Source of the DNA: an uncultured Lachnospiraceae bacterium
GTDB lineage: Bacteria > Bacillota > Clostridia > Lachnospirales > Lachnospiraceae
Direction of reading: 5' to 3'
Assembly: GCA_946620695.1 (NCBI GenBank)
Contig: CAMONU010000006.1
Location: 17,479-81,478 of the forward strand
Length of the DNA: 64,000 nt
The notes under the pieces were generated by a model. It had not been told where the DNA came from, searched no databases, and saw nothing but the letters and a program-made list of their open reading frames with translations. The first letter of the stretch is position 1. Each line of letters opens with the position of its first letter. Shown here one piece after another: positions 884 to 26,184 of the stretch. A program made the translations under genes and the position numbers.

Positions 884-939
884 CCGTTTCTTACGTACAG
901 GCACGACGAACCGGAACCTGATTTCAAACAGTCCGTGAA
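884..939 (-). mobile_element. Dispersed MITE/REP-like element, copy A (one arm plus core)
   Basis: Reverse complement reads TTCACGGACTGTTTGAAATCAGGTTCCGGTTCGTCGTGCCTGTACGTAAGAAACGG, matching the copies at 13633, 17516 and 59299. Confidence 0.8.
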
Positions 940-1141
940 GGCTGACAAAATGTTGATTATTGCGAATAATTGAGCAAGAATTATGCTTTTTTCCAACAAA
1001 GAAATGTGGTATATTATTAAAAAAGTCCGTCGTTTTAGACAATAGTATCGACGCTTTCCCGTCTTTATCCGGGAATCTGCAGAAACGGCGGAGACGCTGC
1101 AGGCAGTCGGAGCATATCTGTGAGGGAAAGGAGTGGAGGAT

Positions 1142-2095
1142 ATGGCTTCACCAAGAGCCAACAAGAACAAAGCTAAAAGCAGCATGAGTTTCGGGGCATA
1201 TATCCGCCGTTACTGGCAGCTCTATCTGCTGCTGCTTCTGCCTATGCTTTATCTGCTGATCTTTAAGTATATCCCCATGATTTACATTCAGATCGCATTT
1301 AAGAAGTACAGCATCGTACAAAGCGTATGGAAGATGCCTCTGGCGGCGAATCACGGCTTCCAGTATTTTATCCAGGCTTTCGCCGACCGGGATTTCCGCA
1401 ATGCCCTGCGCAACACGGTTGTCCTGAATCTTCTGGATCTTGTCATCGGTTTCCCGATCCCGATCATTTTCGCGATCGTCCTGAATGAACTTCCTTTCCA
1501 GAAATTTAAAAAATTTACCCAGACAGTGGCCTACATGCCGCATTTCCTGTCCTGGGTCATTATCTATGGACTGGCCCTGCAGCTTTTTGCACCCAGTACC
1601 GGTCTGATCAATGTGATCCTGAACAATATGGGCAGGGAGAGCGTTCCTTTCCTGAATGATTCCGCTCACTGGGTCGCGACTTATATTTTCCTGGGCGTGT
1701 GGCAGAGCTTCGGCTGGAACTCTATCGTATATCTGGCGGCCATCGCCGGCATCAACAAGGATCTCTATGAGGCCGCCGCTGTGGACGGGGCCGGGCGTTT
1801 CCAGAGAATCTGGCATATTACCCTTCCCGGCATCAAGCCTACGATCGTCATTCTGCTGATCATGGCGATCGGCAACATCGTCGGAAGCAATTTCGACCGT
1901 CCCTATGCGTTGCAGAACAACCTGGTTATGGACTGGGCAAACGTGATTGCCACCTATGTCTACAGGCGAGGCATCAAGGGACTGCAGTTCTCGCTGACGA
2001 CGGCGGTCGGCTTCTTCCAGTCTGTGGTCGGCGTATTTTTCCTGCTCGGCGCCAACTGGCTTTCCCGCAAGCTTGGCGAGCGCGGACTCTGGTAA
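1142..2095 (+). CDS. Carbohydrate ABC transporter permease (LplB/YteP-like)
   Basis: Multiple TM segments, EAA loop LYEAAAVDGAGRFQRIWHITLP; GGAGGA RBS before ATG 1142. Confidence 0.93.
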   Translation: MASPRANKNKAKSSMSFGAYIRRYWQLYLLLLLPMLYLLIFKYIPMIYIQIAFKKYSIVQSVWKMPLAANHGFQYFIQAFADRDFRNALRNTVVLNLLDLVIGFPIPIIFAIVLNELPFQKFKKFTQTVAYMPHFLSWVIIYGLALQLFAPSTGLINVILNNMGRESVPFLNDSAHWVATYIFLGVWQSFGWNSIVYLAAIAGINKDLYEAAAVDGAGRFQRIWHITLPGIKPTIVILLIMAIGNIVGSNFDRPYALQNNLVMDWANVIATYVYRRGIKGLQFSLTTAVGFFQSVVGVFFLLGANWLSRKLGERGLW

Positions 2096-2107
2096 GGGGG
2101 TGAGCTG

Positions 2108-2977
2108 ATGGGTACAGAAAAAAAATGGAGTATCGGCAATATTATTCTGGTGATCGTCTGCCTCCTGATCTGCGCAATCTGCCTGGTTCCCATGCTCAGC
2201 CTTCTGGCAAGGTCTTTAAGTTCTTCGGACGCGCTGGTCAAGCATGAGGTCTATCTGCTCCCCAAGGGGCTGAATTTCCAGGCTTACGCGCTGGTTCTGA
2301 AGGATGCGAAATATATCCGCGCATTCTTCTGGACCGTATTCCTGACCGTCGCGGAGACCCTGCTCTGCCTGTTCATGACGACGATCTGCGCGTATCCGCT
2401 CATCTTCAAGGAGCTGAAAGGGCGCAATGTATTCAATGTCATTATCACCATCACGATGTTCTTCAACGCGGGAACCATTCCCAATTATCTGCTGATGAAG
2501 AGCCTCGGACTTCTGGACAATCCGCTGGTTCTGCTTCTTCCGGGCGCCCTTTCGGTCTATAACATGATCATCATGCGGAGCTTCTTCTACGGGATCCCGG
2601 ATTCCCTCAGGGAGGCGGCCCAGATTGACGGAGCCAGCTATATCAAGATCCTGTGGACCATCTATGTGCCGCTGTCCAAGCCGGTTATGGCTACACTGGC
2701 CCTTTTCTACGCGGTGGGCCGCTGGAACGGCTACTACGATGCCCTGATGTACATTACCGACAATAAGTTTTACCCCCTGCAGCTGCTTCTGTACAACATC
2801 CTGAACAATATCAACAGTGTTGAAGTGGCGACGCAGGAAGGCTTCTCATCTCCGGGCCTGACAGAGTCGCTGAAGATGGCGATCGTCATGTTCTCGACGA
2901 TCCCGATCCTGTGCATTTACCCGTGGCTGCAGAAATACTTCATCCACGGCGTCATGGTCGGAGCGGTTAAGGAGTGA
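2108..2977 (+). CDS. Carbohydrate ABC transporter permease (LplC/YtcP-like)
   Basis: EAA loop LREAAQIDGAS, WNGYYDAL, YPWLQKYF motifs. Confidence 0.93.
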   Translation: MGTEKKWSIGNIILVIVCLLICAICLVPMLSLLARSLSSSDALVKHEVYLLPKGLNFQAYALVLKDAKYIRAFFWTVFLTVAETLLCLFMTTICAYPLIFKELKGRNVFNVIITITMFFNAGTIPNYLLMKSLGLLDNPLVLLLPGALSVYNMIIMRSFFYGIPDSLREAAQIDGASYIKILWTIYVPLSKPVMATLALFYAVGRWNGYYDALMYITDNKFYPLQLLLYNILNNINSVEVATQEGFSSPGLTESLKMAIVMFSTIPILCIYPWLQKYFIHGVMVGAVKE

Positions 2978-3066
2978 AGAATCATGAGTCATAACCCCTG
3001 CGGGGGAATTATGCGATAAAGAGCAGCAGCAAAAGGAACGAGATTCTATCAAGGAGGACGAAAGGT

Positions 3067-4686
3067 ATGAAAAAACAGCTTTTAGCGGCACTTTTTTCAG
3101 CAGCGCTTGCGGCGTCGGCATTTTCAGTATGCGCTCAGGCGGAGGAACTGACCGACGGAAAATTCGCGGAGACGAAGCACATTACCGTCGAAGTCTATGA
3201 CCGCGGAATTGACGGCGGATCTGATGTGACCAACAACATGTATACTGAGTATATCAAGAAGGGCATGCTTGAAGATCACAATGTGGAGGTTGAGTTTGTC
3301 GCTGTTCCCAGATGGACCGAGGTTGAACAGATCAACAACCTGCTGGCGGCGGGAAGTGCCCCGGATCTCTGCGTAACCTATGACCTGCCTACCATCAAGA
3401 CTTATTCCGCGATGGGCGGCGTCATCGACATGAGTGAAATGGTGGAGACTTACAGGGATGAGCTGCCGAATCTCTGGAACTGGCTGACCGAGACCAATAT
3501 CTACTGGGACAAGGATCCGGGAACCGGAGAGCTTTACGATATCGAGACCAAGCTCGCCAACCAGAACCGTACGAACTGCTTTGTCCGCAGAGACTGGCTG
3601 GATAAGCTGGGCATCGAAGCTCCGACCACAAGGGAAGAGTTCTACAACATGCTCTGCGCTTTCCGTGATAATGCGGAGACTCTGCTCGGCGATGACGCCG
3701 ACAAGATGATTCCTTTCTCCGTCAGCTATGACGTAGGCTGGAGAGCATCCACTCTGATCGAGTCCTTCCTGGATCCGGAGATGTCCGACAAGGAATTCTA
3801 TGTAAACGGCTTTGACGACAGAAAAACGACCCAGAATGGCGTGAGAGATGCCATCGAACTTCTGAATACCTGGTACAACGAAGGCCTTATGTGGAAAGAT
3901 TTCGCTCTTTACACCGCCGGCGATACCACAGAGGATGACATGATGAAAGCCGGCTATGTCGGCGCATTCATCCACAACTGGGATTATCCTTACAGAAACG
4001 GCGCGGATTCCATCCAGGCCAACCTTCAGAGACTGGTCGGTGAAGACGCCGCTTATGTGGCAATCGATCCGTTTGAGGACAAGAACGGAACCCATACAAA
4101 ATGGATCGCGGGACCGGTTGACAGAAAAGTATTCTTCCCGATCACCAACGAAGAGCCTCTGGCCTGCCTGCTTTACCTTGACTGGCTGAGCGTTCCGGAG
4201 CATCTGGAATATCTCCAGATCGGTGATGAGGGCGTGACCCATGAGAAGCTTGAGAACGGAGCAGTGAAGATCCTCGCCGCGACAGGCGACGCGATCCAGA
4301 ATTCCGGCTTCAATATCGACTATACGCTGACCTGCAACGGCCTGCATCTGGTCGATGACGAGCAGACCGCTCTGTCCATCGCTTACAGCTACGCGGAAGT
4401 GGATCCGGAGCTGGTTGAGATCGCGAATGCGGTGGCAAAGGTTGATACCCGCGAGGCCAAGAATGCGAACTGCGGAACCATCGAAGCGGAAAACGGCATG
4501 ACCGAGACCCTGAACAGCAAGAGAGACATCCTTCTGGATACCTCTGTCAGCGCGGCACCGGATGCTTTCGCGGCTACCTTCGACAATGCGATGGCGGATT
4601 ATCTCGGATCCGGCGGACAGGCGATCATGGACGAGCGTGCCCAGAAATGGGAGGCAACCTACGGCGATGCGGATATGCTTCCGTAA
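3067..4686 (+). CDS. Carbohydrate ABC transporter extracellular solute-binding protein
   Basis: Signal peptide, acidic 539-aa protein, RRDWLDKLGIEAPTTREEFYNML motif typical of LplA-type SBPs; follows two permeases. Confidence 0.9.
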   Translation: MKKQLLAALFSAALAASAFSVCAQAEELTDGKFAETKHITVEVYDRGIDGGSDVTNNMYTEYIKKGMLEDHNVEVEFVAVPRWTEVEQINNLLAAGSAPDLCVTYDLPTIKTYSAMGGVIDMSEMVETYRDELPNLWNWLTETNIYWDKDPGTGELYDIETKLANQNRTNCFVRRDWLDKLGIEAPTTREEFYNMLCAFRDNAETLLGDDADKMIPFSVSYDVGWRASTLIESFLDPEMSDKEFYVNGFDDRKTTQNGVRDAIELLNTWYNEGLMWKDFALYTAGDTTEDDMMKAGYVGAFIHNWDYPYRNGADSIQANLQRLVGEDAAYVAIDPFEDKNGTHTKWIAGPVDRKVFFPITNEEPLACLLYLDWLSVPEHLEYLQIGDEGVTHEKLENGAVKILAATGDAIQNSGFNIDYTLTCNGLHLVDDEQTALSIAYSYAEVDPELVEIANAVAKVDTREAKNANCGTIEAENGMTETLNSKRDILLDTSVSAAPDAFAATFDNAMADYLGSGGQAIMDERAQKWEATYGDADMLP

Positions 4687-4958: not shown

Positions 4959-6719
4959 ATGATCTGCGTGAAAGCGCCGGTTTACGGCATTTCACAGAAG
5001 AAAGAGAGCAGAAGGGAGACAGCACCCTTGGATAGTTATAAACAAAAAGAGCATCTGAATTATCCGGAGAAGACGCTGACGCAGATGGTCGAGGCCATGG
5101 CGGAGCAGTATCCGGAAGAGCCCGCGTATGAGTTTTACGGAAAAAAGACTTCCTACAGAAGCTTTGCAGACCGGATTCACCGTGCGGCGAAGGCATTTCT
5201 CGCAGCCGGAATCAGGCGGGATGACGCGGTTACCATCTGCATGCCGAATGTACCGCAGGCCATTGACTGTTTCTACGCCCTGAACCGGATCGGCGCGGTG
5301 GCCAATATGGTGCATCCCCTGTCCGCTGAAAAGGAGATCACATTCTATCTCAATATCTCTGAAAGCCGTATGATCCTGACCATGGACATGTTTACGGAGA
5401 AGGTGGAGCGGGCGGTCGCGGAAGCGGATCATCCGGTCACAGTCCTGGTTGCCAGGATGCAGGAGGAACTTCCGCTGCACCTTGCGGGGCTTTATACGCT
5501 GAAAGCAGGCCTGCAGTACCTGAAATTTCCGAATACAGACCATGCCATTCTCTGGAATAAATTTTTAAGAAGCGGTGAAGGCCAGGTTCTTCCGGAACCG
5601 GTTTTCGACCGGGAGCATACTTCCGTGATTCTCTATTCGGGCGGGACCAGCGGGACACCGAAGGGAATCTGCCTGTCCGACTACAATATCAACGCCTGCG
5701 CTCTCCAGGCCCGTGAGGCGATGGGGGAGGTGTTCCGGCCGGGATTGAAGATGCTCAGCTGCATGCCCCTGTTCCATGGCTTCGGACTGGGTATCAACAT
5801 TCATACCGTCCTGATCCATGGTGTCTGCTGCCTGCTGATGCCTTCTTTTAACAATAAAAGTTACGCGCAGGCCATGATCCGGAAGAAGCCGAATTTTCTC
5901 GCGGGCGTGCCGACCATCTATGAAGCCCTTCTGCATATCCCGGAGCTGGAGGGTCAGGACCTGAGTTTTCTGCTCGGAATGTTCTGCGGGGGAGATTCCC
6001 TGTCCGTGGAACTGAAAAAGAAGATGGACCGCTTCCTGAAAGCGCACGGAGCGGGGATCCAGATCCGGGAAGGCTATGGTCTGACGGAATGCGTCACGGC
6101 GAGCTGCCTGACGCCGAAAGGAACCTACCGGGAGGGCAGTATCGGCCTTCCTTTCCCGGATACCGAATACCGGATCGTAAAGCCGGGTACCGACCAGCTG
6201 ATGCCGCCCGGGGAAGAGGGGGAGATTATTCTGACCGGCCCGTCCGTGATGCTGGGCTACCTGAAAAATCCTGAGGAGACCGCAGAGACGCTCCGCGTTC
6301 TTTCTGACGGGAAACGCTGGCTTTATACGGGCGATCTGGGACATATGGATGAAGATGGATATGTGTATTTCCGCCAGCGCCTGAAGCGGATGATCATTAC
6401 CAACGGCTACAATGTATATCCGGGCCAGCTTGAGAATATCATCGACAGCCTGGAGGAGGTCTCCATCTCCTGCGTGATCGGGGTTCCGGATCAGCGGAGA
6501 ATGCAGCGGGTGAAAGCTTTTGTAGTCCTGAAGGACGGCTGCGAACCGTCGGATGCCCTGAAGGAAAAGATCATGGATACGCTCCGGCTTCATATTGCGA
6601 AATATGCGCTGCCCAGGGAGATCGAGTTCCGCAGTGTACTGCCGAAGACTCTGGTGGGCAAAGTGGCCTTCCGGAAACTGGAGGAAGAGGAAGCGCAGAA
6701 AACCCGGCAGAAGCAGTGA
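4959..6719 (+). CDS. Long-chain acyl-CoA synthetase / AMP-dependent ligase
   Basis: YSGGTSGTPKG (AMP-binding), EGYGLTE, YTGDLG, PKTLVGK motifs; true start may be TTG 5028 (GGGAG RBS). Confidence 0.9.
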   Translation: MICVKAPVYGISQKKESRRETAPLDSYKQKEHLNYPEKTLTQMVEAMAEQYPEEPAYEFYGKKTSYRSFADRIHRAAKAFLAAGIRRDDAVTICMPNVPQAIDCFYALNRIGAVANMVHPLSAEKEITFYLNISESRMILTMDMFTEKVERAVAEADHPVTVLVARMQEELPLHLAGLYTLKAGLQYLKFPNTDHAILWNKFLRSGEGQVLPEPVFDREHTSVILYSGGTSGTPKGICLSDYNINACALQAREAMGEVFRPGLKMLSCMPLFHGFGLGINIHTVLIHGVCCLLMPSFNNKSYAQAMIRKKPNFLAGVPTIYEALLHIPELEGQDLSFLLGMFCGGDSLSVELKKKMDRFLKAHGAGIQIREGYGLTECVTASCLTPKGTYREGSIGLPFPDTEYRIVKPGTDQLMPPGEEGEIILTGPSVMLGYLKNPEETAETLRVLSDGKRWLYTGDLGHMDEDGYVYFRQRLKRMIITNGYNVYPGQLENIIDSLEEVSISCVIGVPDQRRMQRVKAFVVLKDGCEPSDALKEKIMDTLRLHIAKYALPREIEFRSVLPKTLVGKVAFRKLEEEEAQKTRQKQ

Positions 6720-20592: not shown

Positions 20593-21441
20593 ATGAGCTG
20601 CGCAGACAGGATATTTATCGACATGTGCAGGGATATTCTCGAGCACGGTACAAGCACGGAGGGGGAGAAAGTCCGCCCTCACTGGCCGGACGGAACGCTG
20701 GCCTACACAATCAAGCGCTTCGGCGTCTGCAACCGCTATGACCTGAGACAGGAATTCCCGGCGCTGACTCTGAGAAGGACGGCGCTTAAAAGCGCCATGG
20801 ATGAGATCCTCTGGATCTGGCAGAGAAAATCCAACAATATACATGACCTGAAGCCGCACATCTGGGATGAGTGGGCGGACGCGGACGGTTCGATCGGCAA
20901 GGCCTACGGCTACCAGCTGGGCGTCAAGCACCGCTATAAGGAGGGAATGTTCGATCAGGTGGACCGTGTGCTCTATGACCTGAAAAACAATCCCTACAGC
21001 AGGAGAATCCTGACCAACATCTATGTGCATCAGGACCTGAGTGAGATGAATCTCTATCCCTGCGCTTACAGCATGACCTTCAATGTGACGAAGGATCCGG
21101 ATTCCGGCAGACTGGTCCTGAACGCGGTCCTGAACCAGCGCTCCAACGATGTGCTGACGGCCAATAACTGGAATGTGGCCCAGTACGCGATTCTTCTGAT
21201 GATGATCGCACAGGTCTGCGATATGATCCCCGGGGAGCTGGTCCACATGATCGCGGATGCCCATATCTATGACAGGCATGTTCCGCTGGTGCGGGAGCTG
21301 ATCAGCCGGGAGCCGCTGCCGGCCCCGAAGGTGTGGCTGAATCCGGAGGTGAAGGACTTCTATCAGTTTACGACGGATGATCTGCATGTGGAGAATTATG
21401 AGACGCATCCGCAGATAAAGAATATACCTGTGGCGGTCTGA
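20593..21441 (+). CDS. thyA: Thymidylate synthase
   Basis: GKAYGYQ, YSRRIL, LYPCAYS, QRSND, DAHIYDRH motifs. Confidence 0.96.
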   Translation: MSCADRIFIDMCRDILEHGTSTEGEKVRPHWPDGTLAYTIKRFGVCNRYDLRQEFPALTLRRTALKSAMDEILWIWQRKSNNIHDLKPHIWDEWADADGSIGKAYGYQLGVKHRYKEGMFDQVDRVLYDLKNNPYSRRILTNIYVHQDLSEMNLYPCAYSMTFNVTKDPDSGRLVLNAVLNQRSNDVLTANNWNVAQYAILLMMIAQVCDMIPGELVHMIADAHIYDRHVPLVRELISREPLPAPKVWLNPEVKDFYQFTTDDLHVENYETHPQIKNIPVAV

Positions 21442-21495
21442 GACGGAAGGAATTTCGCCATGGTACAAAACTCTGTTTTGGAAGGAGGACCCGGT

Positions 21496-21999
21496 ATGAA
21501 AATGATCGCGGCAGTGGATGCCAGATGGGGAATCGGCAGGAAGAACCAGCTTCTCGTATCGATTCCGGCAGATATGAAAGCCTTCCGGGCGGCGACGACC
21601 GGACAGGTCATCGTGATGGGCAGGAAGACCCTGGAAAGTTTTCCGGGAGGAAAGCCTCTGAAGGGGCGCGTCAACCTGGTTCTGACCGGGGGCAGAAATT
21701 ACCGGGCGGAGGGGGCGACGGTCCTTCACAGCGTGGAGGATGTGCTGAAAGAACTGGAAAAATATCCGGACAGGGAAGCCTGGTGCATCGGGGGCGGAAG
21801 CATCTACAGACAGTTTCTCCCTTTTACAGATGAAGTGCACGTGACAAAGATCGAGCATGTCTACGAGGCGGATACCTTCTTTCCGGATCTGGACGCGGAT
21901 CCGGAATGGGAGATTACGGGAATCAGTGAAGAGCAGACTTATTTTGACCTCGTCTATCATTTTGTAAGATATGAACGCTGCCGTTCACGGGCAATTTGA
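21496..21999 (+). CDS. folA: Dihydrofolate reductase
   Basis: IAAVDARWGIG, IPADMKAF, VMGRKT, IGGGSIY, EADTFFP motifs; GGAGG RBS before ATG 21496. Confidence 0.95.
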   Translation: MKMIAAVDARWGIGRKNQLLVSIPADMKAFRAATTGQVIVMGRKTLESFPGGKPLKGRVNLVLTGGRNYRAEGATVLHSVEDVLKELEKYPDREAWCIGGGSIYRQFLPFTDEVHVTKIEHVYEADTFFPDLDADPEWEITGISEEQTYFDLVYHFVRYERCRSRAI

Positions 22000-22060: not shown

Positions 22061-22101
22061 GGCGCCGGGAACGGCGCCGCTAAAGAAGGAGCAGACTGAC
22101 T

Positions 22102-25101
22102 GTGGATCATCTGCGCTGCGTTGTGGAACGCATTACCTATCAGAATGAAGAAAACGGCTACGCGGTGATCAAATGCCGCGCCAAAGGGTATCCTGAACTT
22201 GTGACGGTTGTAGGCTCCATGCCGGACGTCCATGTGGGTTCTGTCCTGACCATGGAAGGAGAATGGAAGATTGACCGCCGCTTCGGCAGGCAGTTTTCGG
22301 CCATGAAATGGGAAGAGAGCCTGCCGGCCACAGCACTCGGGATTGAGAAATATCTGGGCTCCGGACTGATCAAAGGGCTGGGGCCGAAGATGGCCAGAAG
22401 GATCGTCGAGGCCTTCGGCGATCAGACCCTGGAAGTGATCGAATCCGATCCGGAAAAGCTCAGCAGGGTGCAGGGCATCGGGAAAAAGCGGGCGGCCCGG
22501 ATCCTCTCCGAGTGGGAGGCCCAGAAGGAGATCCGGAATATCATGCTGTTCCTGCAGTCCCATGACGTGGCGCCGGCGCACGCGGCCCGCATCTATAAGG
22601 CTTACGGAAATGACGCGATCCGGATCGTCAGGGAGAATCCCTACCGCCTTGCGGACGATATATGGGGCATCGGCTTTAGGACGGCGGACCAGATCGCTGC
22701 GAAGATGGGGATCGGGAAGGACCGCTTCATGAGGCTGCGCAGCGGCATTCTTTATACCCTGCACCAGTTCTCCGATCAGGGACACTGCTTTGCCCGCCGC
22801 ACCCCGCTGATTGAAAGAGCATCGGAACTCCTGGAAGCGGAGAAGGAGCTTCTTGAATTTACGCTTGACGATATGATCCGGGCCAAGGATGTGATCGCAG
22901 AAAAGGAAGAGGAATCGACGGAAGGCGATCTCTGCATCTGGCTCCCGGCCTTTTTCCATGCAGAGAGGGGAGTGGCCAGGAGGATCCGGACGATTCTTTC
23001 CGCTGCCAGAGAGCGGACTGTCATGGAGGACGGGGGACTGATCAGCAGGATCGAGAACCGGATGCAGATCTGCTATGATCCGATCCAGAGGGATGCGATC
23101 CTTACGGCCATCCATTCCAAACTGATGGTCCTGACCGGGGGACCCGGGACCGGGAAAACCACGGTGACCCGGGCGATTATCGCCGCATACCGGGAGTCGG
23201 GTTTCAGGGTTCTTCTGGCGGCCCCGACCGGACGCGCCGCCAAACGGATGAGCGAGGCGGCAGGCATGGAGGCCTGCACGATCCACCGCCTTCTGGAAGC
23301 GCAGCCGCCGGGTGCCTATAAGAAAAATGAAGAAAATCCGGTCGAGGGAGACGTCCTGATTGTGGATGAGTGCTCCATGATCGACCTGATCCTGATGTAT
23401 AACCTGCTCAAAGCCCTGCAGGATTCCATGACCCTGATCCTGATCGGGGACACGGACCAGCTGCCGAGCGTGGGCGCGGGAAATGTGCTCTGTGATATCA
23501 TCTCCTCGGGGGCGGTCCCGGTCATCCGGCTGGAGCGGATCTTCCGCCAGGCCCAGGGCAGCCGCATCATCATGAATGCCCACCGGATCAACCGGGGAGA
23601 GCCGCTGGATCTCAGGGGCGGGAAGGAGTCTGATTTCTTCTTTATCGAGGAGGAGGACCAGGATGCGGCGGTGAAGAGGATGGTATCCTACTGTGTGAAG
23701 AATCTCCCTGATTATTACAGGGTGGATCCGCTCCGGGATATCCAGGTCCTGACGCCCATGCAGAAAGGGGCTGCCGGGGCGGTGCATCTGAACACGCTCC
23801 TGCAGCAGGCCATGAATCCGGAGGGACCCTGCCTGATGAGGGGCGGCATATCCTACCGCCTTCACGACAAGGTGATGCAGATCCGGAACAATTATGATAA
23901 GGAAGTTTACAACGGAGACATCGGCCTGATCACGGCAGTGAATACCGGCGACCGGGAACTGACCGTCTCCTTTGACGGCAGGAACGTCGGATATGATGTC
24001 TCAGAGCTTGATGAACTGGTCCTGGCCTATGCCACGACCATTCACAAAGCCCAGGGCAGCGAGTATCCGATCGTGGTCCTGCCCCTTCAGATGAGCCATT
24101 ACATCATGCTGCAGCGCAACCTGCTCTACACGGCTGTCACAAGGGCAAAGAAGGTACTGGTCATCTTCGGCGAGCGGAAAGCCCTTGCATGCGCGGTCCG
24201 GAACAACCGGGCATCTGTGCGCAACACCCGCCTGTCCGCAAGGCTTGCGGGGGAGGCGGCAGCAAAAGCTGCTTCCGGACAGGCACAGGCGCAAGCGGCC
24301 GGTGAAGCTGTTCGCACCGCCGCGGGGATGGCTGGTGAAACTGCAGTCCACACCGATGCGGGAATGGCCGGTGAAGCTGCAGTCCGCACCGCCGCGGCAA
24401 TGGTCGGTGAAGCAGTCCGCACCGCCGCGGGGATAAGCGGCGGGTCTGCGGCCCGTCCTGCGGAAATTCCGGCACAGACCGGGAATACGCCCGCGGCGCG
24501 CACATTTGCTCCCGTTGTAACAGTCCGTCGCCTGACTCTTTCCGGTGAGACCGAAAGGCGCCTGAGGCACAGATTTATCGCTTTCGATACGGAGACGACG
24601 GGCCTGAGCCCGGAAAGGGACCGGATCTGCGAGCTTGGCGCGGTCCTGTTTGAGAACGGGACTGCGGTAAGGCGTTTTGAGACGCTGGTCAATCCGGACG
24701 TGAGGATGAGCTACGGCGCCACGAAGGTGAACCACATCACGGACAGGATGCTGTATACGGCGCCGTCCGAGAGAGAGGTGTATCCCAGGCTCATGGATTT
24801 TTTTACCGGCGCCGGGGAAGGCGGGCAGGAGGAGATCCTCCTCTGCGCCCACAATGCCCGTTTTGACATGGCGTTCCTGAAAAGCGCCCTGGAGCGAAAC
24901 GGGATCGAGGGAAGGCTGCTTTTTGTGGACACGCTGGAGCTTTCCAGGCAGTTTCTGAGACGGTCTCCCGACTACAGGCTCGGCACCGTCGGGGACTTTT
25001 TCGGGATCGTAAACCGGGAGGCGCACAGGGCTGCCGCAGATGCGGAAGTATGCGGACAGATTCTCTGCAGGCTTCTGGAGTACAGGAGAAAGCTGAAATA
25101 G
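22102..25101 (+). CDS. recD2: RecD2-like SF1B helicase fused to a C-terminal DEDDh 3'-5' exonuclease domain
   Basis: VERITYQNEENGY N-terminus, GGPGTGKT, IVDECSM, YATTIHKAQGSE, LLYTAVTRAK; then FDTETTG, HNARFD, HRAAADA. Confidence 0.92.
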   Translation: MDHLRCVVERITYQNEENGYAVIKCRAKGYPELVTVVGSMPDVHVGSVLTMEGEWKIDRRFGRQFSAMKWEESLPATALGIEKYLGSGLIKGLGPKMARRIVEAFGDQTLEVIESDPEKLSRVQGIGKKRAARILSEWEAQKEIRNIMLFLQSHDVAPAHAARIYKAYGNDAIRIVRENPYRLADDIWGIGFRTADQIAAKMGIGKDRFMRLRSGILYTLHQFSDQGHCFARRTPLIERASELLEAEKELLEFTLDDMIRAKDVIAEKEEESTEGDLCIWLPAFFHAERGVARRIRTILSAARERTVMEDGGLISRIENRMQICYDPIQRDAILTAIHSKLMVLTGGPGTGKTTVTRAIIAAYRESGFRVLLAAPTGRAAKRMSEAAGMEACTIHRLLEAQPPGAYKKNEENPVEGDVLIVDECSMIDLILMYNLLKALQDSMTLILIGDTDQLPSVGAGNVLCDIISSGAVPVIRLERIFRQAQGSRIIMNAHRINRGEPLDLRGGKESDFFFIEEEDQDAAVKRMVSYCVKNLPDYYRVDPLRDIQVLTPMQKGAAGAVHLNTLLQQAMNPEGPCLMRGGISYRLHDKVMQIRNNYDKEVYNGDIGLITAVNTGDRELTVSFDGRNVGYDVSELDELVLAYATTIHKAQGSEYPIVVLPLQMSHYIMLQRNLLYTAVTRAKKVLVIFGERKALACAVRNNRASVRNTRLSARLAGEAAAKAASGQAQAQAAGEAVRTAAGMAGETAVHTDAGMAGEAAVRTAAAMVGEAVRTAAGISGGSAARPAEIPAQTGNTPAARTFAPVVTVRRLTLSGETERRLRHRFIAFDTETTGLSPERDRICELGAVLFENGTAVRRFETLVNPDVRMSYGATKVNHITDRMLYTAPSEREVYPRLMDFFTGAGEGGQEEILLCAHNARFDMAFLKSALERNGIEGRLLFVDTLELSRQFLRRSPDYRLGTVGDFFGIVNREAHRAAADAEVCGQILCRLLEYRRKLK
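24298..24434 (+). repeat. In-frame 33/36-bp tandem repeat forming the RecD2-exonuclease linker
   Basis: GGTGAA-starting units at 24301, 24334, 24370, 24406 encoding AGEA(A)VRTAAGM-like peptides. Confidence 0.9.
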
Positions 25102-25251: not shown

Positions 25252-26184
25252 TTGATCTATACGGTTACATTCAGCCCGACTCTGGATTACATTGTCGGGG
25301 TGGAACATTTCAGAACAGGAAGCATCAACCGTACGACTTCGGAGACGATCTATCCGGGCGGCAAGGGAATCAATGTTTCTCTTACTCTCAAGCGGCTGGG
25401 CTTCGAGAATACTGCGCTCGGATTTACGGCCGGCTTTACGGGGGCGGAGATCCGCCGCCTTCTTCGCGGCTATGGGGTGGAGTGCAACTTTATCTCGGTC
25501 GAGCAGGGGATGTCCCGCATCAATATGAAGATTCTCTCGGATGAGGAAACTGCGATCAACGGACAGGGAGCCCGGGTGACGCCGGAGGATATCGGCACTC
25601 TCTATGCCCGGCTCAGATGCCTGGTGGACGGGGATTTTCTTGTCCTGGCGGGACATATTCCGGATTCCCTTCCCTCCAATATGTACGAGCAGGTGCTCAT
25701 GATGCTGGAGAACCGCAGACTGAATGTGATTGTAGACGCGGAGCAGGAGGCTCTTACGGACACACTGAAGTATAAGCCTTTCCTGATCAAGCCCAACAGG
25801 GATGAGCTTGGCGACATTTTCGGCGTACAGCTTAAGAGCAGGGAAGATGTGGTCCCCTATGCCAGGAAGCTGATGGAAAAAGGAGCGCGCAATGTTCTGG
25901 TGAGTCTCGGAGCGGACGGAGCAGTCCTTCTGGCCGAGAACGGGCTGATTTACAGTTCCCCCGCCCTTCAGGGCGATGTTGTCAGCACCGTGGGCGCGGG
26001 AGACGCCATGGTGGCGGGATTTCTGGCCGGTTATCTCGGCTCGGACGGGGATTATCTGAACGCTTTCAAGAAAGGCCTCTGTGCGGGAGCGGCGAGCTCG
26101 TTCAGCCTTGTGGTTCCGGACGGGAGGGAAGTGGGGCGCCTGATGCGCACCACCGATTTCCAGATCGATATAACAGAAGCCTGA
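25252..26184 (+). CDS. 1-phosphofructokinase-family (FruK/LacC) PfkB kinase
   Basis: MIYTVTFSPTLDY, PGGKGINVS, IKPNRDEL, STVGAGDAMVAGF. Confidence 0.88.
   Translation: MIYTVTFSPTLDYIVGVEHFRTGSINRTTSETIYPGGKGINVSLTLKRLGFENTALGFTAGFTGAEIRRLLRGYGVECNFISVEQGMSRINMKILSDEETAINGQGARVTPEDIGTLYARLRCLVDGDFLVLAGHIPDSLPSNMYEQVLMMLENRRLNVIVDAEQEALTDTLKYKPFLIKPNRDELGDIFGVQLKSREDVVPYARKLMEKGARNVLVSLGADGAVLLAENGLIYSSPALQGDVVSTVGAGDAMVAGFLAGYLGSDGDYLNAFKKGLCAGAASSFSLVVPDGREVGRLMRTTDFQIDITEA

Follow-up and report, generated by a model that had tools for sequence, protein, structure and literature searches.

A RecD2 helicase with a tethered PolC-like DEDDh exonuclease in a single predicted chain from Lachnospiraceae

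RecD2 is a widespread repair and replication-stress helicase for which no nuclease partners are known. In a stretch of 64,000 nucleotides (the window: contig CAMONU010000006.1, positions 17,479 to 81,478) from an uncultured Lachnospiraceae bacterium of the gut or rumen, we analysed a gene, recD2-exo, whose product carries a complete RecD2 of superfamily 1B (SF1B) and a DEDDh exonuclease in one polypeptide. Canonical RecD2, as in Deinococcus radiodurans and Bacillus subtilis (RecD2/YrrC), has the same full domain set, motor motifs and fold, but the protein in the window adds about 285 residues, a linker predicted to be disordered followed by the exonuclease, and belongs to a second RecD2 lineage. 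The B. subtilis enzyme is a 5'-3' helicase that accompanies replication forks, interacts with SSB and RecA and clears RecA off single-stranded DNA (PMC10804225).

Several described systems share parts of this design. ExoDinG, the DinG protein of B. subtilis and Staphylococcus aureus, likewise joins a 5'-3' helicase and a DEDDh 3'-5' exonuclease in a single polypeptide; the exonuclease domains superpose, with a root-mean-square deviation (rmsd) of 1.5 Å over 172 aligned columns between our model and the S. aureus DinG exonuclease 9ii8 (Foldseek), and replication stress is the likely shared arena. The motor of ExoDinG is SF2/XPD-like, whereas that of the window is an SF1B RecD2, and the exonuclease of ExoDinG is N-terminal and closely attached, whereas here it is C-terminal, placed on a long flexible tether and drawn from a PolC-like subfamily. 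In sequence and in structure the closest relatives of the exonuclease itself are the PolC exonuclease domain and a phage 'DNA polymerase exonuclease subunit' (phrog_192), which have the same DEDDh residues, but unlike the PolC domain the module is neither embedded in nor attached to a polymerase, and its immediate donor is a protein of about 600 residues with an exonuclease and a NUMOD-like domain. RecBCD, AddAB, AdnAB and Dna2 follow the same logic of coupling a motor to degradation of the unwound DNA, and RecD and Dna2 are also SF1B 5'-3' motors, the RecD subunit being a structural relative by Foldseek; their nucleases, however, are rigidly docked PD-(D/E)XK domains, whereas the one described here is a tethered DEDDh domain without a RecB/RecC-like partner. 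WRN also combines a repair helicase and a DnaQ-fold 3'-5' exonuclease in one chain, but it is eukaryotic, with a RecQ-type SF2 3'-5' motor and an N-terminal DEDDy exonuclease.

A single chain of helicase, linker and exonuclease

The features of the gene and its product are as follows (window coordinates, with residue numbers of the protein).

22102..25101, + strand: recD2-exo, a single open reading frame (ORF) of 999 residues, stop codon included, GTG start (ORF listing)
22086..22091, + strand: ribosome-binding site AAGGAG, 10 nt before the GTG (direct reading)
22120..24243, + strand: complete RecD2 SF1B helicase, residues 7-714, with OB fold, HHH domains, 1A, SH3/2B and 2A
Residues 1-75: OB_YrrC (Pfam, over cut-off)
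Residues 90-230: HHH_5 and HHH_RecD2 (Pfam, over cut-offs)
Residues 326-501: AAA_19 and AAA_30 (Pfam)
Residues 563-624: SH3_13 (Pfam, over cut-off)
Residues 641-688: UvrD_C_2, the 2A end (Pfam, over cut-off)
23137..23163, + strand: Walker A, GGPGTGKTT, residues 346-354 (aligned with D. radiodurans RecD2)
23359-23379, + strand: Walker B, IVDECSM (same alignment)
23446-23472, + strand: motif III, GDTDQLPSV (same alignment)
24244..24513, + strand: Ala/Gly-rich flexible linker, residues 715-804, about 90 residues (composition and model confidence)
24298..24435, + strand: tandem repeat of four units (33/36/36/33 bp) that code for AGEAVRTAAGM-like peptides, private to the species of the window (Tandem Repeats Finder, TRF)
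24514..25098, + strand: DEDDh 3'-5' exonuclease domain, residues 805-999, including a conserved lead-in of about 20 residues (Pfam, phmmer, Foldseek)
Residues 826-987: RNase_T, PF00929 (Pfam)
24583..24603, + strand: Exo I, FDTETTG, residues 828-834 (D829, E831)
24850..24867, + strand: Exo II, HNARFD, residues 917-922 (D922)
25024..25044, + strand: Exo III, HRAAADA, residues 975-981 (H975, D980)

The helicase part scored 894 bits against TIGR01448, the NCBIfam equivalog of RecD2 with a cut-off of 500 bits, and the match runs from residue 7 to 714 over profile positions 2-712 of 713. Comparison with D. radiodurans RecD2 (3e1s, 1.8e-77 by phmmer) showed every motor motif to be intact, FRQA, TIHKAQGSEY and VTRAKK being present in addition to those listed, and the model of this part aligned to the RecD2-DNA complex 3gp8 with a template modelling (TM) score of 0.86 (Foldseek). 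TIGR01447, which describes the RecD subunit of RecBCD, gave only 268 bits against its cut-off of 310, and Pfam and NCBIfam found none of the DinG domains (DEAD_2, Helicase_C_2) in the 999-residue protein, which is thus not a member of the ExoDinG family. By equivalog score, domain set, motifs and fold the helicase part is a RecD2, and it is predicted to translocate and unwind in the 5'-3' direction at the expense of ATP.

The exonuclease part matched RNase_T with 96.4 bits (Pfam gathering score 24 bits) over profile positions 1-163 of 164, and its best sequence likeness is to PolC proofreading domains, with 2p1j at 1e-22 by phmmer. D829, E831, D922, H975 and D980 correspond to the DEDDh residues of the PolC exonuclease 2p1j and of 90 aligned relatives, and the five residues are kept in all fusions of this kind and in the donor family. 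The model of the domain superposed on PolC 9qpc with an rmsd of 1.7 Å over 184 columns (Foldseek). The Pfam score, the five catalytic residues and the DnaQ fold identify the domain as a DEDDh exonuclease, for which a Mg-dependent 3'-5' activity is predicted. A preliminary description, made from the letters of the window, had proposed a full RecD2 ending at RNTRLSARL and a DnaQ-like domain with all three Exo motifs in the same frame; both were recovered, RNTRLSARL closing the helicase part at residues 707-715, and the Pfam and NCBIfam searches place RecD2 plus RNase_T in a single chain.

That description had also seen between the two parts an Ala/Gly-rich linker of about 100 residues built from 33/36-bp repeats. 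The composition (32% Ala, 13% Gly) and the repeats stand, but the linker is of about 90 residues and the tandem repeat covers only its middle 46 residues, about half. An AlphaFold2 model built on the alignment of the relatives had a mean predicted local distance difference test (pLDDT) score of 80, with a confident helicase and values of about 90 for the exonuclease (residues 805-999), and residues 721-804 fell below 50. The linkers of the window and of a sister species (G011, below) cannot be aligned either as protein or as DNA; indeed the linker differs in each species, and the repeat is absent from G011. Such free turnover between species, together with pLDDT below 50, is as expected for a tether, and the linker is predicted to be disordered and flexible. 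Kinship of the linkers through frameshift or repeat decay was considered and rejected, since similarity in the DNA alignment of the window and G011 is confined to the flanks. Foldseek returned no solved chain that spans both the helicase and the exonuclease parts.

The integrity of the linker was judged from independent assemblies. Eight members, from NCBI, Logan, ENA and JGI, make up the 90%-identity cluster of the protein; the sequence of the window is itself also recorded from NCBI and Logan, and three more copies of 999 residues and a 574-residue fragment, from separate ENA and JGI assemblies, have an identical linker and scattered substitutions elsewhere. The same architecture with a wholly different linker was found in G011, a genome of a sister species in the same genus, and in the metagenome cluster P0002 (989 residues; 78 members, many of this length), the helicase core and the exonuclease each being 92% identical to those of the window, and again in a metagenome protein of 953 residues (P0003) with 60% overall identity. 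The ratio of non-synonymous to synonymous substitution rates (dN/dS) between the window and G011 was 0.075 in the helicase part and 0.071 in the exonuclease part, with dS of 0.66-0.79. Purifying selection is therefore equal on the two parts, and the dN/dS of 0.071 past the linker indicates that the reading frame there is translated and constrained. The single chain of complete RecD2 and intact DEDDh domain first noted in the window thus recurs in independent assemblies, in G011 and in P0003; this all but rules out a misjoin or a merged gene call, and we regard it as nearly certain that the fusion is real and that both domains are functional proteins.

Origin and recurrence of the fusion

The genome that contains the window (G000) has two RecD2 genes that pass TIGR01448, the fused one and one of 838 residues. 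In a tree of helicase cores the 838-residue protein clusters with the single RecD2 of the other families of the order, and the fused gene falls in a separate, strongly supported lineage, termed here paralog A, which occurs in some Lachnospiraceae, is related to the RecD2 of Dethiobacter and Peptococcaceae and was found in about 12 of the 20 genomes of the genus.

Within paralog A, the fusions represented by P0001, P0002/G011 and P0003 (type 1) are recovered as a single clade of the helicase tree (support 92), and their exonuclease domains form one clade with congruent branching in the exonuclease tree (support 89). The comparison of the two trees shows that the fusion arose once, before the three species split, and was then inherited vertically. 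The exonuclease clade of the fusions is nested in a 98%-supported clade of proteins of about 600 residues, sister to the PolC exonucleases, in which the exonuclease domain is N-terminal and a NUMOD-like domain C-terminal, and the lead-in ahead of Exo I is common to both. The exonuclease was captured from the N-terminal domain of such an exonuclease/NUMOD-like protein, in an ancestor of a few species of the genus. The fusion is old, because within its clade the helicase core is 67% and the exonuclease 56% identical, and even the nearest species is separated by a dS of about 0.7.

A recent origin by loss of a stop codon and repeat expansion, as first suggested for this gene, does not agree with these data: only the tandem repeat is recent and private to the species of the window. 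The comparison of split and fused genes among relatives was run, and a split ancestor, recD2 beside a separate type-1 exonuclease gene, was found in none of them; unfused orthologues of the same genus stop after the RNT motif or bear DUF4186.

The donor family (P0004-P0046; in G010:C13:33943-35670, L014 1444-3171) is sizeable and comprises uncharacterised proteins of about 540-680 residues with an N-terminal PolC-like DEDDh domain, a conserved middle part and a C-terminal NUMOD/I-HmuI-like DNA-binding part, and has phage relatives (phrog_14632, phrog_192). The exonuclease subfamily of the window is also found in P0038, a fusion of 1318 residues with a UvrD-like helicase and a PD-(D/E)XK domain.

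The chromosomal surroundings of recD2-exo are conserved along with it. Its immediate neighbours, each with synteny as further evidence (for thyA, in G011 and on the P0003 contig), are the following.

20593..21441, + strand: thyA, thymidylate synthase, upstream (Pfam PF00303)
21460..21999, + strand: folA, dihydrofolate reductase, upstream (Pfam PF00186)
25252..26184, + strand: pfkB-family sugar kinase, downstream (Pfam PF00294)

The order MBOAT, ALGX-like, thyA, folA, fused gene, pfkB is kept in three species, so that the location beside thyA-folA given in the preliminary description is a conserved one; PGM is also among the neighbours. On the contig of P0003 only 2 bases separate the end of folA at 5998 from the start of recD2-exo at 6001. 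In the ORF list of the window the neighbourhood of recD2-exo showed neither defence nor mobile genes, and a promoter and terminator scan at the locus gave nothing above chance. A general linkage of the RecD2 lineage to thyA-folA was rejected, as it is found only in the species with type-1 fusions and not in G019 or at other loci. Between folA and the ribosome-binding site of recD2-exo lies a GC-rich, near-perfect palindrome, GGCGCCGGGAACGGCGCC, at 22062-22079, with no T-run after it, which could be an attenuator or a protein-binding site.

The type-1 fusion was restricted to the genus of the window in a survey of one genome for each of 400 genera of the family. A query across the junction, searched exhaustively with HMMER against 1.84 billion representative proteins, found both parts only in a fragment of the same kind and in one full-length protein, P0223 (947 residues), in which RNase_T is N-terminal (residues 17-173) and a complete RecD2 follows. 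A word-index search gave a further form, type 2 (P0154 and P0203, of 917 and 920 residues), in which a short linker of KTE repeats leads to a DEDDh domain at the C-terminus that is of another subfamily and has the motif HHQADSD. Two type-2 fusion proteins are annotated at source as 'exodeoxyribonuclease V alpha subunit', and the unfused and DUF4186-bearing relatives as 'ATP-dependent RecD-like DNA helicase'. Full-text literature searches found no paper on a RecD2-exonuclease fusion, and in the surveys above the architecture is rare.

The RecD2 parts of type 2 and of P0223 belong to the same accessory lineage, with cores 61-65% identical to that of the window, and their RNase_T domains are intact; all are unstudied. 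The three exonuclease types are, however, mutually only 28-33% identical, they lie in different helicase subclades and in unrelated genomic contexts (P0203 adjoins a transposase gene), and they differ in position or linker. The data show that RecD2 was joined to a DEDDh domain independently at least three times, twice in C-terminal and once in N-terminal form. Such recurrence argues for a functional partnership of helicase and exonuclease and suggests that RecD2 works together with a nuclease of this class. In its domain architecture the protein described here is a variant of RecD2 that is new, rare and unstudied, and the convergent fusion is its most interesting aspect.

One apparent full-length match (L021, residues 1-993, from an Oribacterium metagenome-assembled genome, MAG) was discarded as a composite of a type-2 exonuclease ORF fragment and a separate plain recD2. 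In this sequence, JAILDF010000163.1 of Oribacterium sp. RUI013, a type-2 exonuclease ORF (L021 2-460), 75% identical to the P0154 exonuclease, is cut by the contig start, and a plain paralog A recD2 (929-3208) lies 469 bp downstream; the arrangement could be a tandem pair of a recD2-exonuclease gene and a recD2 gene.

Proposed function and alternative readings

DEDDh domains take off nucleotides in the 3'-5' direction. Joined to a RecD2, such a domain gives the same polarity pairing as in ExoDinG, a 5'-3' motor with a 3'-5' DEDDh nuclease, which leads us to read the protein as the SF1B counterpart of the Firmicute enzyme in the processing of DNA under replication stress and in repair. The RecD2 part would load onto a 5' single-stranded tail or a gap, travel 5'-3' and peel away the complementary strand or a RecA filament. 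Because a 5'-3' motor enters the duplex from a 5' tail or gap, the strand it displaces has a free 3' end, and the tethered exonuclease could consume the exposed 3'-ended strand, either displaced DNA or, where a fork has stalled or reversed, the nascent 3' end there; the RNA of R-loops may be a further substrate. Unwinding and removal of the 3' end would then take place in one complex. Intact motifs, folds, selection, a single origin, synteny and convergent fusion are established by computation; from them we infer the two activities, how they are coupled and the pathway they serve in the cell, and a helicase-nuclease predicted to serve forks, gaps or ends is a reasonable inference from them. 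Taken as a whole, we hold with moderate confidence that recD2-exo is a genuine, vertically inherited chromosomal gene for a bifunctional enzyme of SF1B helicase and PolC-like DEDDh exonuclease, the counterpart of ExoDinG, and we regard the case for a coupled, ExoDinG-like mechanism as evenly balanced.

Several points weigh against this proposal. The canonical RecD2 is retained, and the fused lineage is missing from many genomes of the same genus, so that the fused protein has an accessory function and not an essential one. Given the length and flexibility of the tether, the two activities could also be uncoupled, the exonuclease being merely recruited to the sites where RecD2 binds. ExoDinG of S. 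aureus reportedly has no helicase activity (McRobbie et al. 2012), and intact motifs are thus no guarantee of both activities. Finally, a thyA-folA-recD2-exo operon is suggested by spacing and synteny only.

The C-terminal domain may instead be a non-catalytic recruitment module that steers RecD2 by binding 3' ends, single-stranded DNA or a partner (the clamp or SSB, for example), a role of the kind proposed for the pseudo-exonuclease DinG (pExoDinG). DUF4186, a non-nuclease domain at the same position of RecD2 in sister species, suggests that the C-terminal slot may serve targeting, and pExoDinG offers a precedent for an exonuclease-like domain retained without catalysis (PMC11981726). Yet pExoDinG has lost catalytic residues, whereas type-1 fusions and the donor family all keep the five DEDDh residues, and the fold matches active PolC and DinG exonucleases with an rmsd of 1.5-1.7 Å; we thus consider a purely recruiting role improbable.

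Little credence is likewise given to an anti-phage or anti-plasmid helicase-nuclease, a defence effector encoded by a single gene. Its appeal lies in the accessory nature of the lineage, with its patchy distribution and swappable C-terminal modules, in generic PADLOC matches (typeIV_RecD, PDC-S68, a Cas-associated DEDDh model and PDC-S48), in the phage relatives of the exonuclease subfamily (phrog_192) and the homing-endonuclease-like NUMOD domain of its relatives of about 600 residues, and in the transposase next to the type-2 fusion P0203. The gene itself, however, sits in a stable housekeeping context (thyA, folA, pfkB, PGM) in three species, with no nearby defence or mobile genes, and its inheritance is vertical with congruent helicase and exonuclease trees. 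The best PADLOC match, typeIV_RecD with 276 bits, is also far below the 894 bits of the RecD2 equivalog, and the protein was not assigned to a defence system.

RecD2 is reportedly linked to mismatch repair in Bacillus anthracis, a finding attributed to Yang et al. 2011, and the protein might accordingly carry out excision by itself in MutL-nick-directed mismatch repair or in the processing of gaps, where RecD2 would unwind from the nick and the exonuclease remove the error-bearing 3'-ended strand. An exonuclease nearest to PolC proofreading domains and a recurrent fusion of RecD2 with DEDDh domains would fit such a dedicated pair. Against it, a core function such as mismatch repair contrasts with a lineage that is accessory and rare, no link to mutS or mutL turned up (the mismatch repair genes themselves were not examined), and the B. 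subtilis literature stresses the fork and RecA roles of RecD2 (PMC10804225), so that we find this role quite improbable.

An artefact, in which adjacent recD2 and dnaQ-like genes were merged by a misjoin or sequencing error in the GC-rich linker, whose 33/36-bp tandem repeat at 65-69% GC may be error-prone for short-read MAG assemblies, is extremely improbable given the identical in-frame linker of the further ENA and JGI copies that differ by substitutions elsewhere, the same architecture around entirely different linkers in G011, the P0002 cluster and P0003, and a dN/dS of 0.07 downstream of the linker, which marks the frame as the translated one.

Returning to the helicase-nuclease proposed above, the fused protein and the two independent fusions point to a partnership of RecD2 with a 3'-5' exonuclease of the proofreading type. 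The fused protein would offer a system in one polypeptide for the cooperation of a 5'-3' SF1B motor with a 3'-5' nuclease, parallel to ExoDinG, in which this pairing of polarities is poorly understood. A wider reading, by the 'Rosetta stone' argument, is that RecD2 quite generally, also where it is unfused as in Bacillus and Deinococcus, partners a 3'-5' DEDDh exonuclease in vivo in an excision or fork-trimming machine of two parts. We think this generalisation unlikely; if true, candidate roles would be the helicase-exonuclease step of Gram-positive MutL-nick-directed mismatch repair or the removal of nascent 3' ends at stalled forks, and the fused protein would be a single-chain model of the partnership. 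The practical impact is expected to be modest, because the clade is small and the proposed function is a prediction.

C-terminal modules of the accessory RecD2 lineage

Three kinds of C-terminus were distinguished in paralog A.

Plain: G002, G003, G016, G017
Linker and DUF4186: G019, probably G008, and about 20 of the 120 nearest database relatives
Linker and exonuclease: G000, G011, P0003

In G018 the ORF leaves its contig inside a linker, with the C-terminus beyond the contig. DUF4186 (PF13811) is a Cys-bearing domain with the motif HPVF..QHATxTCCRGCLxKWH, located behind a disordered linker at the position of the exonuclease, as exemplified by L005 1501-4266 (G019), P0105-P0220 and L004 (G008). 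The structure search gave no solved relative of this domain and the literature search no functional paper, and the modular C-terminus of the accessory Lachnospiraceae RecD2 places it in a DNA-repair context. Downstream of the DUF4186-type recD2 of G019 (L015 2233-4410) is a divergent gene pair that reads as a LexA/S24-peptidase-like repressor and a Y-family (DinB/UmuC-like) polymerase.

The canonical RecD2 of G000, at contig C10:58593-61109 (L013 1094-3610), scored 844 bits with TIGR01448 and lies between mreB-like and comF-like genes. In this 838-residue protein the HHH domains are separated from motor domain 1A by a low-complexity, Ala/Gly/Pro/Asp-rich insertion of roughly 100 or more residues. 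The DinG-like helicase of G000, the sole Helicase_C_2 protein of the genome (contig C43), is without RNase_T. The third RNase_T ORF of this genome is at contig C20:6950-7417, in a frame of 377 residues and with a score of 46 bits.

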